DNA of 64,000 nucleotides from Syntrophorhabdaceae bacterium (GTDB lineage: Bacteria; Desulfobacterota; Syntrophorhabdia; Syntrophorhabdales; Syntrophorhabdaceae): the NCBI GenBank assembly GCA_963666485.2, contig CAXXUO010000002.1:605466-669465 (forward strand), in the 5' to 3' direction. Below are positions 33,001 to 36,000 of this stretch, one piece after another. Within the stretch, counting starts at the first letter, position 1; every line of letters starts with the position of its first letter. The position numbers were made by a program.

Positions 33001-36000
33001 TGGGCAAGGTAACCTGGTTCTTCGATGTTTTCTTTGCAAGCATTCCTTACCTCCTTACTGTAAGGATATCTTAGTAACATCCAAAGTTCAACCAATAATT
33101 CCGCTCAACGCAAACGTTTCAACAATCATCTGCCCCCTGGGTTTGATCCTATATTACTTTTTAGAACAAGAAAACGTGATTGAAACTTGAAACGATTTTC
33201 AGGTTACTCTACAATCAATTTTATGAGAATATCATTCCCGGCAATATTGGCTCTGGCAGCGCTCGCCCTGACCGCCTGCACGGTGACGAAAAACATTGCC
33301 ATCGAGATGCCCCCCACCGCTGCCGTGTCCGTCTATGACGGGAAGATCGTCGGCAAGCCCTTCGTCAACAAGGTCGGTCAGGAGAGCCCGAAAATGATCG
33401 ACCTGTATTTCGAGACGGGTGGGAAAACATATTTCATCAAGTTCATCGACAGCAACGTATCCCGCAATGAAATGTCCCAATACATCAATACGCGCCTGAA
33501 GGTGGAGGGCAGGCTCGGTGACGGCCTGTGGGACACGAATGACCCCAACCATCAGAGCCGGGTCGGGGAGTATATCGTTATCGAAAAGATAAAAAAGTAA
33601 AGCGGTTCCACGTTCCAGGTTCCACGTTCCATGAGAAAAGCGAAGATTTGGCACAACGTCTGTACTCAAACTGAGCACGATTGTTCTCAATTTGAGTACA
33701 GACATTTAGTGATGCCGTCATCCCGGTGCTTGACACCGGAATCCAGGGTTTTGCATCTCTTTTTGACGTTGAACGGTTGTCAGAGGAAGGGGACGTCCTT
33801 AAGAAAGTAAGTAACTCGGTTAGGGGTAAAGAATGTAAGAATGGTCCATTGAGTCATTGTGGGGAGTTTCTTACTTTCTTAAGGACGTCCCCTCAGTCTT
33901 TTACGTGATCTAAGGTTTTTTAGCTTTGAACCTTGAACCTTGAACCTTGAACCTTTTTTTAAATTATTTGAAATATTCCCGTAGCTTTTTGTTCATCTCC
34001 TCACTGCCTTCAACCAGGTTCACCTCGCGGACCTCGGGAAGCGCCTCTTTCAGTAACTTGTCGGCCCACAGACTGAGGGCGTTTATCCCGCATCAGTGCA
34101 TGGTGCCGCCGAGGAGCCGCAGGGTGACGGTGGCCGTGCCTTCGTCGACCGAGACCACTTCAACCTCGCCCTCGGCCAGGTCTTCCAGTCGGGGATTGAG
34201 GCGCTTCAGTTCCTCTTCAACTCTCTGCCTTAAATCCAATTCAGGCCTCCACGAGAGAAACATATGGTTTCATATTGAAAGTTTCAAGTGTCAGACAGGC
34301 TCGCCCGGTCATTCCGATGCGGGCTCATCCGGCATCGGGCCCCAGACGGTGTTTACCTGGCATATCTCCGGTATGGCATCTTTCAACAATTTTTCAGCCC
34401 ACAGGCAGCAGGCGTTTATCCCGTTCGCGATAAGCAGGCCGCGAAAGACCCGCAGCGTGACAATGCATGTCTCTTCATCCACGGAAATTATTGCCACGTC
34501 ACCCTGGGCCAATTCCTGGAGCCGCGGGTTCAGGCGTGCAAGCTCTTCTTCAACCTTTTGTCTTAATGTCATAATGCCTCCTCCGCTGTAACCTGGGGAT
34601 GATTGTAAGATATTCTCTACCCTTTTTCTACTCTCTTTCTCCCCCGCCGCTCGCGTGACCGGCCCCTCAGGCCGCGATCGATCATTATTCTATTATGGTG
34701 CCCGGCTGCCGAATTTTCATATTGACGATAAAGGCGAAATAAAACATATTGTTGTCAGGTGGGCCTACAACAGGTGATGATGACGAAGTGGAGACAGATC
34801 GCGGTAATCTCCTGTATCGCAGTCCTCATTTTCATGTCCGTGATCTATCTGATACTTCTCAACTACAATTACAACAACCTCAAGCCCCGCATTACGCAGG
34901 CGGTCAAGGATGCAACCGGCAGGGAACTGGTCATGGGGGGCGACATACGTATAAAGATAGGCCTCGCGCCTACCCTCGTGGCGTATGACATCCGTTTTAA
35001 GAACGCCGCCTGGAGCGTGCATCCTGATATGGCCAGGATCAAGCGTACAGAAATAAAAGTCAGGCTTTTCCCTCTTCTCTTCCGGCAGCTCAAGATAATA
35101 CGGTTGGCCCTTGTGGAACCCGACATCCTCATTGAACGGGACGCTTCCGGCAGGTCAAATCTCGACTTCGGGACCGGTCAATTCTCGCAGATATCCTTCA
35201 AAACGATGGGGGTCGAGAAAGGCCGAATAAACTATATAAATCATAAGTGGAACCAGAAATATACAGTTGCCGTCGACTCAATGACCGCGACGGCGCCGGG
35301 GTCCGCGTATGGCCCGGTCCGGATAAAGGCGCGGTGTTCATATAACGGTGAAAACTTTGACGTCGAGGGAAGCACGGGTTCTCTCACTGCGTTTGAAAAA
35401 CCGTCCGCCCCGTGGCCTGTTGACCTTACGGTACGCGCGGGGTCTGCCGTCCTGGTGCTCAAGGGCGGTATTGACAACCCGGCGGACATGCGCGGGATAA
35501 AACTGCATTTTAACCTGAAGGGCAGCGACCTTTCCCGCCTCAATCGGATGTCCGGTGCGTTGCCGAAACTGCACGGGCCCTTCGACGTCTCGGGAAACAT
35601 ACATGACACCGGCCATATGGTTTACTCGATCTCCAATTTTGCGGTACTGCAAGGCGCAAGCGATCTTTCCGGGTCCATGGAACTCAATGCGGCCGGGAAA
35701 GAGCCGGTCGTGAAGGCGCTGTTCAAGGCGCATAAACTGGACCTGCGTTCGCCCGGCGGGACCGGCCCCGGCCACAAGAAGACGGCTGCGGCCAAGGGCA
35801 AGGTCTTCCCCGGCACACCGCTGCCGCTTGACGTCCTGAACAAAGTCTTTGACGCGGAGATCAGGCTTGATGCTGCCGAAGTTATCACGGACGATCTCCT
35901 GTTGACCGGCCTCAATGCGGACATCCTTCTCAAGAAGGGACTGCTTAACGTGAGGTCTTTCAAGGCAAGTTTGGGGAAAGGTTCGGTGGACGGTAAATTC

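Follow-up and report, generated by a model that had tools for sequence, protein, structure and literature searches.

A predicted Sec-containing Nfu-fold protein family in Syntrophorhabdales and its possible role as an iron-sulfur carrier

We analyzed a 64,000-nucleotide stretch of the genome of a Syntrophorhabdaceae bacterium (the window hereafter) and found a small gene whose in-frame UGA, at codon 49, is very probably translated as selenocysteine (Sec) and whose single-domain product very probably adopts the fold of the NifU C-terminal (Nfu) iron-sulfur (Fe-S) scaffold domain. The likeliest of the functions considered, although we put it forward with reserve, is that the protein acts as a carrier of Fe-S clusters (or of another soft metal) through its Sec-Cys site. 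This family of selenoproteins with a Sec-Cys pair on an Nfu fold is uncatalogued in published lists.

Gene structure and conservation of the in-frame TGA

The gene and its nearby signals are located as follows:

33964..34239, minus strand: predicted selenoprotein gene, with TTG start at 34237-34239, 91 codons including Sec49, and TAA stop at 33964-33966
34093-34095, minus strand: in-frame TGA, predicted Sec codon 49; the homologous codon is TGA in 46 of 46 loci
34246..34250, minus strand: ribosome-binding site GGAGG, 6-7 nt 5' of the TTG start

The initial annotation had described a 91-residue protein that runs through a TGA at codon 49, and re-reading of the frame gave the same result: the TTG start and 48 codons in all, the TGA, 42 further codons and the TAA. 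Most relatives of the selenoprotein gene have a similar GGAGG or GAGG sequence 5' of the start. The Sec site of the window copy reads GGTMH-U-CG. In public databases, members of the family appear only as 48-residue 'hypothetical protein' entries, the gene calls of which stop at the TGA, and W stands at the Sec site in two public entries. Selenoproteins are systematically mis-annotated, and the Nfu-like family provides an example.

When the order-wide search was repeated, the earlier counts were obtained again: among 96 Syntrophorhabdales genomes, 40 matches at E<=1e-12, 38 of which carry the in-frame TGA and come from 38 genomes in 18 genera. The two matches lacking the TGA are paralogues, one in the source genome (G000) and one in G017. 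The 38 loci reported for the order stand, and the family also extends outside the order. We read all 38 loci of the order together with eight from outside (46 loci in total). In each of them the TGA is followed by 27-49 open and conserved codons, and the best-conserved part of the protein is the post-TGA segment CG.NALSLWA[DE]KLL[KR]E..PE, the codons of which vary synonymously. Among 30 of these genes, 16 have TGA as their terminal stop; thus, TGA otherwise serves as a stop in these organisms and the code is standard. Within the order, selA was present in 35 of the 38 genomes that hold the gene, and the three genomes without it are 95, 80 and 73% complete. It should be noted that the Sec trait was found in 91 of the 96 genomes; as it is nearly universal in the order, the presence of selA does not discriminate holders from non-holders.

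SECIS hairpin and Sec decoding

34064..34080, minus strand: predicted SECIS hairpin, nt 16-32 with the U of UGA taken as nt 1 (GCCC / U / CA / GUC loop / UG / U / GGGC)

The initial annotation had cautioned that a SECIS structure was not established. Such a hairpin is now established by comparison, with the SECIS of Escherichia coli fdhF as a control. It begins 13 nt after the UGA and has the family consensus GCCC-U-CR-GUY-UG-U-GGGY. The apical loop GUY occupies positions 23-25, including G23 and U24, as placed in the E. coli fdhF SECIS, and positions 23-27 match fdhF letter for letter. The six pairs of the hairpin were kept in 30 of 30 sequences (RNAalifold consensus), with 94.9% paired cells versus 25-54% in slid controls, the highest of which reached 53.5%, and a compensatory change from CG to UA could be observed in two rows of the alignment. 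The third positions of codons +5 to +8 (GCC CTC RGT YTG) were invariant in all 30 sequences, whereas other invariant residues use three to five codons each. In the lineage in which Cys precedes Sec (C-U), an inserted codon is accompanied by a +3-nt shift of the hairpin. A search of Rfam gave no relevant match within 33800-34700. With regard to the decoding machinery, the genome contains a tRNA-Sec (73.7 bits, anticodon TCA) and all of selA, selB and selD, the last of which itself contains a UGA. Sec insertion at UGA49 is very probably directed by the downstream hairpin, with the tRNA-Sec, SelA, SelB and SelD of this genome as the machinery.

It is very improbable that no Sec is inserted at all, that is, that the TGA is a true stop behind a 48-residue peptide, belongs to a decaying gene or is read as another amino acid such as Trp. 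The 48-residue public gene calls and the W found at the site in two entries would fit such an account, and so would the folding of single sequences after the UGA, which was no better than that of shuffled sequences (z = -0.61 and +0.71). However, the fdhF SECIS used as a positive control failed in the same way (z = -0.08), so that this test is uninformative. Moreover, the downstream frame is open and conserved with synonymous change in all 46 loci, neither a start codon nor a ribosome-binding site could be found after the TGA, and the standard code applies. Chance can be excluded because the downstream protein is conserved while its codons vary synonymously, because the SECIS has frozen synonymous sites, and because the Sec machinery is complete. 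As the loop of the SECIS differs little from the E. coli fdhF loop and is equally spaced, the gene may be expressible in E. coli.

Nfu fold and the Sec-Cys site

Likeness to Nfu had first been reported on the basis of a borderline Pfam match, which we recovered unchanged (NifU, PF01106; 29.6 bits, E 7.5e-7, residues 7-73), the small margin over the gathering cut-off of 27 having been computed with Cys standing in for Sec, which may flatter the score. Additional evidence now backs this likeness. PF01106 was matched by 29 of 35 family members at E<=0.01, and the family profile matched Arabidopsis CnfU (2z51) with E 2.1e-8. An AlphaFold model of the protein (pLDDT 83.6; helix 3-22, strands 24-32 and 37-44, helix 54-66 and strand 72-77) shows the alpha-beta-beta-alpha-beta fold of solved Nfu domains. 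In a Foldseek search with this model, Nfu/NifU domains took ranks 1, 2, 4, 7, 8 and 9 (six of the top nine), including 2z51 (E 3e-4) and 2m5o (TM 0.61/0.57), followed by 1th5, 2jnv, 1xhj and 1veh. The previous remark that the protein has no NCBIfam model also holds for release 20.0, in which there was no match at E<=0.1. A normal 72-aa Nfu protein with the motif GACGSCP is also encoded in the source genome (C4:28314-28526).

The loop that precedes helix 2, which in Nfu carriers contains the CxxC motif, holds the predicted reactive residue. In a MAFFT alignment, Sec is placed against the second Cys of the canonical Nfu CxxC (GACxxC) and Arg/Lys against the first. At the latter position (-3 relative to Sec), R was found in 36 loci, K in 8, T in 1 (the window copy) and S in 1. 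With the second Cys being Sec, the CxxC cluster-binding motif is therefore absent in 46 of 46 loci, which indicates a divergent Nfu-fold protein and not a canonical Nfu carrier. The loss of the two-ligand CxxC speaks against a carrier role, and a basic residue at the position of the first ligand suits a cluster site no better than it would a nucleophile or an oxyanion site.

Each of the 46 loci has one Cys next to Sec, on the C-terminal side in 38 (U-C) and on the N-terminal side in 8 (C-U); a Cys on both sides or on neither was found in none. The motif G-x-x-H-U-C-G proposed at first does not describe the conserved feature; of the 38 U-C loci, only 29 have the His. What is conserved is a Sec with a single adjacent Cys, either before or after it, which amounts to a testable design rule. 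In addition, several lineages carry an extra CxC or CC tail at the C-terminus. The initial annotation had identified no Cys orthologue, and we likewise found none with Cys at the Sec site among 1.84 billion representatives; the word-based homologue search gave no close orthologue of this type and only three full-length matches, all of them of the paralogue type described below. As the domain is very small, soluble and well predicted, its remodelled Fe-S ligand site would be convenient for examining the role of selenium at a metal-cluster or vicinal chalcogen site.

A Sec-less paralogue next to the selenoprotein gene

34309..34572, minus strand: Sec-less and Cys-less paralogue, 87 aa, 69 nt upstream of the selenoprotein gene on the same strand; RGLLIANGINACCLW

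The reported identity of this paralogue to the selenoprotein was confirmed at 59-60%, and I-A-N replaces the H-U-C of the latter. In a phylogenetic tree, the paralogue clade (100/100) is nested within a 98/96 clade of Sec forms; judged from this tree, the neighbouring paralogue is a descendant of a Sec-bearing ancestor. It can be regarded as a natural 'knock-out' of the site, which is useful for comparison.

Gene neighbourhoods

In the window, the neighbours of the selenoprotein gene (an AsmA gene, a PIN/AbrB pair and a cytidylate-kinase-like gene) are uninformative, and the gene context varies across the family. This lack of a conserved context is an observation that does not favor a carrier role. 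Other lineages have more informative neighbours. In five loci of one genus (g24), a radical SAM gene lies directly upstream on the same strand; four of the five genes are of the B12 type with Radical_SAM_N2, and the fifth has the Radical_SAM domain alone and is situated ∼700 bp away. In genome G004, an AmmeMemoRadiSam radical SAM gene is directly upstream on the same strand.

The C-U lineage shows a different arrangement. In seven of seven C-U loci, the upstream gene in the operon encodes a fusion of FMN_red and LMW-PTP/ArsC-like domains with an invariant CX2CX2CX5C motif, and the fusion gene and the selenoprotein gene are separated by a 4-nt gap or overlap, that is, they are translationally coupled. 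The ArsC-like domain of the fusion scored 90.5 bits against 157.6 and falls under every NCBIfam ArsC cut-off. Within Syntrophorhabdales, separate FMN_red and ArsC-like domains occur in all 96 genomes, and the full-length fusion in only three, where it is not adjacent to the selenoprotein gene. No literature was found on a fusion of an iron-sulfur flavoprotein with an arsenate reductase. Genes for As, Hg or Cu efflux or their regulators were absent from the loci scanned for neighbours. A DUF166 gene is also upstream in five of the seven C-U loci; a preprint reports that CODH/ACS-dependent autotrophy in Methanococcus maripaludis depends on a DUF166 gene, which is also co-fit with the Ni-insertion protein CooC2 (bioRxiv 10.1101/2024.03.05.583561). 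The loci with informative neighbours belong to close kin and hence represent few independent events.

Possible function of the Sec-Cys site

If the protein works as a carrier, an Fe-S cluster, or another soft-metal centre, would sit between two protomers with Sec and the vicinal Cys as its ligands, and the cluster would be passed to Fe-S enzymes that are encoded alongside in several lineages, either radical SAM enzymes or the FMN/[4Fe-4S] flavoprotein-ArsC-like fusion. It is known that Nfu carriers supply [4Fe-4S] clusters to radical SAM enzymes. We consider such a role because Fe-S proteins are encoded directly upstream in the same orientation (in g24, G004 and the C-U loci) and because Sec already has a precedent among Fe-S carrier families in the HesB/IscA-like selenoprotein. 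A more specific form of the proposal, which is tentative, is a natural Fe-S carrier that would bind its cluster through selenium, with a Sec-Cys pair per protomer in place of CxxC, and that, in strict anaerobes, might supply radical SAM enzymes and iron-sulfur flavoproteins as a dedicated, more oxidation-tolerant or more labile donor. If true, this would be a second Fe-S carrier family, beside the HesB-like protein, with Sec at a cluster-ligand position, and would open biological Se-ligated Fe-S chemistry to direct experiment.

The main alternative, which we regard as rather unlikely, is that Sec and Cys cycle between selenolate/thiolate and an eight-membered selenenylsulfide, and that the protein, although built on an Nfu scaffold, carries two electrons in the manner of a thioredoxin. 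In the C-U lineage, for instance, the flavoprotein domain of the upstream fusion and its CX3C/CX5R ArsC-like domain could exchange electrons by way of the selenoprotein. Such a role would account for the single vicinal Cys that is obligatory on one side of Sec or the other in 46 of 46 loci, for the replacement of the first metal ligand by Arg/Lys and for the coupling to the fusion gene in all seven C-U loci, and thioredoxin-coupled ArsC enzymes need a dithiol reductant. The C-terminal CxC/CC tails of several lineages could then act as a resolving pair, and redox motifs are found in most selenoproteins of the 2026 catalogue (see below). However, the fold is not thioredoxin-like, the radical SAM neighbours need one-electron donors and not a dithiol, and the window shows no evident partner reductase. 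Because the full fusion is so rare in Syntrophorhabdales and non-adjacent there, its pairing with the selenoprotein gene cannot explain the U-C lineage. In addition, we know of no redox function for Nfu domains.

It is more doubtful, and on balance improbable, that the protein is a chaperone for a soft metal or metalloid, or for Se/S, in which Sec and Cys (with His or tail Cys in some lineages) would take up As(III), Hg, Cu, Ni or a perselenide/persulfide for transfer to a recipient. Such a protein would resemble the vicinal Cys pair of ArsD or the metal-binding selenoproteins with a 'CU' motif, and the catalogued CU/UC motifs are mostly located in predicted metal-handling proteins (SaoL, HgcA, MbdU and the CopZ-family 2Fe-2S proteins with GxUC and CU). 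The ArsC-like domain and the DUF166 gene upstream in the C-U lineage, the latter with its link to CooC2, point in the same direction. Against this stand the absence of As, Hg or Cu efflux and regulator genes from the loci scanned and the low scores of the ArsC-like domain against all NCBIfam ArsC models.

Comparison with catalogued selenoproteins and other known systems

The earlier statement that NifU/Nfu-like proteins are not among the known selenoprotein families agrees with Table 1 of the AEM 2026 review (119 families), which lists neither PF01106, NifU/Nfu nor H-U-C-G. There were likewise no occurrences of NifU, Nfu or PF01106 in the main text and one supplement of BSepDB, and a literature search combining NifU/Nfu with selenoprotein returned only work that appears unrelated. 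The family would therefore add to the prokaryotic selenoproteome a fold that is unlisted among the 119 families of the 2026 catalogue. Most catalogued selenoproteins are redox proteins, which in itself does not favor a carrier. Weak matches flagged as having one TGA were also considered as a possible second Sec-containing Nfu family. Most proved to be canonical Nfu genes or to have no usable alignment, and the TGA was the normal terminal stop where they could be aligned; the exceptions were L089 (G166), which is a real C-U member of the present family, and L061 and L062, which are broken copies.

Canonical Nfu/NifU C-terminal carriers, such as CnfU (2z51), the C-domain of human NFU1 (2m5o) and Staphylococcus epidermidis SE0630 (1xhj), have the same fold and domain length. 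In the selenoprotein family, by comparison, a vicinal Cys has been gained, the first Cys is replaced by Arg/Lys and the second by Sec, and the helix motif TLKxG of canonical Nfu is ALSLW. The C-U-G of the C-U lineage is similar to the redox-active C-terminal Gly-Cys-Sec-Gly of mammalian thioredoxin reductase, in which Cys and Sec are also adjacent; this resemblance is not what a carrier would lead one to expect. In thioredoxin reductase, however, a large flavoenzyme, the motif forms a flexible tail at the C-terminus, whereas here it is part of a loop inside a small Nfu domain. Among catalogued selenoproteins, the (2Fe-2S)-binding CopZ-family proteins (cd10141) have GxUC and CU forms (AEM 2026 review table). 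These predicted Fe-S binders also show both U-C and C-U arrangements, but the likeness is in the motif only, as the domain is different. The HesB/IscA-like selenoprotein (TIGR01911, UxGP), which is experimentally verified according to the same table, likewise belongs to an Fe-S carrier family and has Sec at a cluster-ligand Cys, but differs from the Nfu-like family in its unrelated fold (A-type carrier), its motif and the lack of a vicinal Cys.

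A conserved in-frame UGA in a small Nfu-like gene

The initial annotation proposed that the window gene (g01901) continues through an in-frame TGA to encode a selenoprotein, and that a paralogue (g01902) lacking Sec lies next to it. The corresponding features are:

34239-33964, (-): selenoprotein gene; TTG, 47 further codons to ...LLGGTMH, TGA, 42 codons (CGINALSLWADKLLKEALPEVREVNLVEGSEEMNKKLREYFK), TAA
34095-34093, (-): in-frame TGA of the window gene; the homologous codon is TGA in relatives
34572-34309, (-): paralogue gene, neighbour of the window gene; product of 87 residues

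The sequence GGAGG was found 6 nt 5' of the TTG start of the window gene, and read-through into one longer frame is borne out by the frame itself and by the conserved codons downstream. The paralogue shows 59-60% identity to the window selenoprotein, in line with the 60% reported before, and reads ...RGLLIANGINACCLW... at the Sec-equivalent site, which indeed lacks Sec.

An order-wide search of 96 genomes (E<=1e-12) yielded 40 rows, 38 of which (38 genomes in 18 genera, as had been claimed) contained one in-frame TGA; the other two were the paralogues of the window's own genome (G000) and of a second genome, G017. When all 38 loci of the order and eight from other families of the phylum were inspected, TGA was present at the homologous codon in 46 of 46. 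Among the first 30 loci, the start lay exactly 48 codons ahead of the TGA in 27, and the frame past it remained open for 27-49 codons. The terminal stop was TGA in 16 of the same 30 genes, showing that TGA normally serves as a stop in these organisms. The best conserved portion of the protein was the segment past the TGA, where synonymous variation could be observed (Cys, TGC/TGT; Gly, four codons; Leu+13, five codons).

SECIS hairpin and Sec machinery

The SECIS element had been left unestablished by the initial annotation. Third positions of codons +5 to +8 (GCC CTC RGT YTG) were invariant in all 30 loci, whereas the other invariant residues of the protein used 3-5 codons each. RNAalifold placed a hairpin exactly on these bases (nt 16-32, counted with the U of UGA as the origin), made up of four G-C/G-U pairs, two more pairs beyond a U-U mismatch and a GUY triloop, with all six pairs retained in 30/30 loci. 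The covariation check was extended with the sister lineage, in which Cys precedes Sec (C-U; the window gene's group, with Sec then Cys, is U-C), giving 39 rows, 31 of them distinct. In this set, 94.9% of cells were paired versus 25-54% when the 3' partners were slid, and a compensatory C-G to U-A change occurred at pair 12-18 in two of the 39 rows. A seventh, basal pair showed five pair types and was unpaired in 11 rows, and a one-codon insertion displaced the hairpin by +3 nt in the sister lineage. The hairpin is thus supported by frozen third positions, retained pairs and compensatory change. Single-sequence folding of the window gene was no better than that of shuffles (z -0.61 and +0.71), and the control, the SECIS of Escherichia coli fdhF from the K-12 record, was equally no better (z -0.08), so no weight attaches to this measure. 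No Rfam family matched the hairpin region.

A tRNA-Sec (73.7 bits, anticodon TCA), selB, two copies of selA and selD, itself TGA-containing, were identified in G000. Across the order, 91 of 96 genomes carry selA, and among the 38 holders of the selenoprotein gene 35 do; the three holders without it are 95, 80 and 73% complete.

G000:C3:19436-24445, G000:C1:229833-231191, G000:C4:168611-170485: selA/selB matches above the cut-off, two each (C, contig)

One selA of G000 was observed within a 795-codon open frame adjoining one selB gene, and this arrangement may represent a duplicated or fused Sec-insertion module.

On the basis of the TGA in 46/46 loci, the synonymous variation, the hairpin and the machinery, comparison across relatives establishes Sec decoding of this UGA at the sequence level, and the window gene is a genuine selenoprotein gene with good support. 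Given the same evidence, it is very improbable that the UGA is not decoded as Sec.

Nfu fold and the Sec-Cys site

Likeness to the C-terminal (Nfu) domain of NifU had been proposed from a Pfam match. On repeat, the read-through protein, scored with Cys for Sec, again matched PF01106 at 29.6 bits (cut-off 27) and no NCBIfam model at E<=0.1; the paralogue scored 17.1 bits. A profile of 30 Sec forms and five paralogues matched Arabidopsis CnfU (2z51; E 2.1e-8) and Staphylococcus epidermidis NifU (1xhj; E 0.013), and 29 of 35 members matched PF01106 at E<=0.01. The AlphaFold2 model (pLDDT 83.6, pTM 0.69) has a helix-strand-strand-helix-strand topology followed by a tail helix of low confidence, and Nfu/NifU domains took ranks 1, 2, 4, 7, 8 and 9 in a Foldseek search against the PDB (2z51, 2m5o (TM 0.61/0.57), 1th5, 2jnv, 1xhj and 1veh). 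These results demonstrate that the window protein has an Nfu fold.

In an alignment with canonical Nfu proteins, including the 72-residue GACGSCP copy of G000, Sec aligned on the second Cys of the CxxC motif and the first Cys was replaced. Over 46 loci, position -3 was R in 36, K in eight, T in one (the window gene) and S in one. Exactly one Cys adjoined Sec in every locus, never on both sides or on neither: 38 loci were x-U-C (x = H 29, M 4, L 2, I 1, N 1, T 1) and eight were C-U-x (x = G 4, A 3, N 1). The motif first proposed, G-x-x-H-U-C-G, therefore stood in part: Sec followed by Cys holds in 38 loci, Cys precedes Sec in eight, and His, found in 29 of the 38, is not essential because this residue varies. 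Judged from the alignment, the essential feature is the Sec-Cys pair, and a site remodelled to Sec plus one vicinal Cys on an Nfu fold is evident. As a separate observation, lineage-specific, cysteine-bearing C-terminal tails, VDVC(Q/E/T)CG, VDVCS and VVCCYT, follow the Nfu domain in some relatives (loci L033-L041, L045 and L046; family f4 and genome G008); the tail of the window protein has no cysteines.

Distribution and origin of the paralogue

The exact U-C nucleotide signature (UGA, UGY, GG, seven free bases, hairpin) was found in 33 records among 185,579 species (one genome per species), 32 of which were titled Syntrophorhabd- or other delta-proteobacterial/Syntropho- MAG and one only 'uncultured bacterium'. 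In a sample of 401 genomes, the C-U lineage turned up in three further families of the phylum. Only four kinds of match were obtained among 1.84 billion representative proteins: full-length paralogue-type proteins, two that show W at the Sec position, fragments of 47-82 residues stopping at the TGA, and canonical Nfu. An orthologue with Cys at the Sec site, already missing in the initial annotation, was again not found among these representatives. Named public entries of the family are 'hypothetical protein'. The two W forms are public metagenome gene calls (P0007, GGRMRWCG; P0008, GGRLHWCG), in which the gene caller presumably read TGA as Trp. Broken or partial copies were also noted (L061 in G093:C83, L062 in G048:C15 and L026:3047-3172 in G019:C34): one apparently frameshifted, one that lacks the U-C segment, and one that is a C-terminal fragment, lying about 1.4 kb away from the intact copy.

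Among the genomes searched, the paralogue occurred only in G000 and G017; all other paralogue-type proteins come from metagenome entries. A maximum-likelihood tree (47 rows, only 86 columns, many unresolved forks) grouped the five paralogue-type proteins in one clade (support 100/100), nested within a 98/96 clade that also holds the Sec protein of the window and the Sec orthologues closest to it; canonical Nfu fell outside this larger clade. The nesting among Sec forms indicates that the paralogue arose from a Sec-bearing ancestor, with later loss of both Sec and the adjacent Cys.

Gene neighbourhood

The window gene is surrounded by a divergent AsmA-family gene, a PIN/AbrB-like pair and a cytidylate-kinase-like gene, and this context is uninformative. 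Side features of the region are:

30664-31065, (+): 23S rRNA intervening-sequence protein gene
32409-33095, (-): PIN-domain ORF
32804-33043, (-): small AbrB/SpoVT-like ORF (MLAKKTSKNQVTLPKEIADRF...), overlapping the former in another frame
33788-33817 / 33864-33893: 30-nt inverted repeat, 97% complementary, 46-nt spacer, 70 nt past the selenoprotein stop
33919-33948: GGTTCAA-type heptamer run directly after the selenoprotein stop

The two overlapping ORFs are probably a toxin-antitoxin pair, with the PIN start called too far upstream. No intrinsic-terminator pattern was detected downstream of the selenoprotein gene, and the inverted repeat might belong to a repeat element or act as an unusual terminator.

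Neighbours differ across relatives, some recurring. In genus g24, all five loci read have a radical SAM gene upstream, in the orientation of the selenoprotein gene. In four of them this gene is the immediate upstream neighbour and is of B12 type (Radical_SAM_N2 plus Radical_SAM); in the fifth (L047) it has a Radical_SAM domain match only and is about 700 bp off. An AmmeMemoRadiSam radical SAM enzyme gene takes the same position in G004. In the close relatives G019, G018, G059 and G068 (L026, L027, L028 and L025), the selenoprotein gene follows a 4HBT thioesterase gene, with DUF134/NifX-like (weak MrpORP match) or Mrp/NUBPL-like P-loop genes alongside.

In the C-U lineage, a 324-337-residue fusion of an FMN-reductase domain and an LMW-PTP/ArsC-like domain is encoded directly upstream in 7/7 loci, a few bases apart or overlapping:

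L067, L069-L074 (genomes G306, G435, G248, G148, G335, G277, G184): C-U loci with the fusion

Invariant motifs are CX2CX2CX5C in the FMN-reductase part, the cysteine motif of methanogen iron-sulfur flavoproteins, and CX5R and CX3C in the LMW-PTP/ArsC-like part. No paper on such a fusion was found in a library of limited scope. Within the order, only three of 96 genomes encode the full fusion, not adjacent to the selenoprotein gene. A DUF166 gene (DfsP-like, weak NF041372 match) precedes the fusion in 5/7 loci, the order in this conserved operon being DUF166, fusion and selenoprotein gene last. In Methanococcus maripaludis, autotrophic growth that depends on CODH/ACS requires a DUF166 gene (bioRxiv 10.1101/2024.03.05.583561). 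The recurring contexts belong to closely related loci and amount to few independent events.

Possible function

Tentatively, the most likely role of the site would be that of a Sec/Cys-ligated cluster or metal carrier, because every recurring neighbour is an Fe-S protein, the domain folds like an Fe-S carrier and Sec takes the place of a cluster ligand. A selenenylsulfide redox relay would suit three features of the site: the first ligand is gone, a basic residue stands in its place, and Cys may lie on either side of Sec. This relay is a strong rival and a possibility to be taken seriously, if on balance an unlikely one. That the protein serves as a metal, metalloid or chalcogen chaperone appears rather improbable.

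Comparison with known selenoproteins

The claim that NifU/Nfu-like proteins are absent from known selenoprotein families agreed with the catalogues searched. Table 1 of a 2026 review of prokaryotic selenoproteomes (119 families and subfamilies; PMC13188914) lists neither NifU/Nfu nor PF01106, nor any motif that matches, and by term search NifU, Nfu and PF01106 are not mentioned in the main text and one supplement of BSepDB (PMC13326102) or in deep-Sep (PMC12013277). A literature search for NifU/Nfu and selenoproteins, in a library of limited scope, gave only unrelated papers as judged by their listings. The family is uncatalogued in print, and what distinguishes it is an Nfu fold that carries a Sec-Cys pair. 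The five letters G23 U24 C25 U26 G27 of the E. coli fdhF SECIS recur in the hairpin of the window gene at identical positions.
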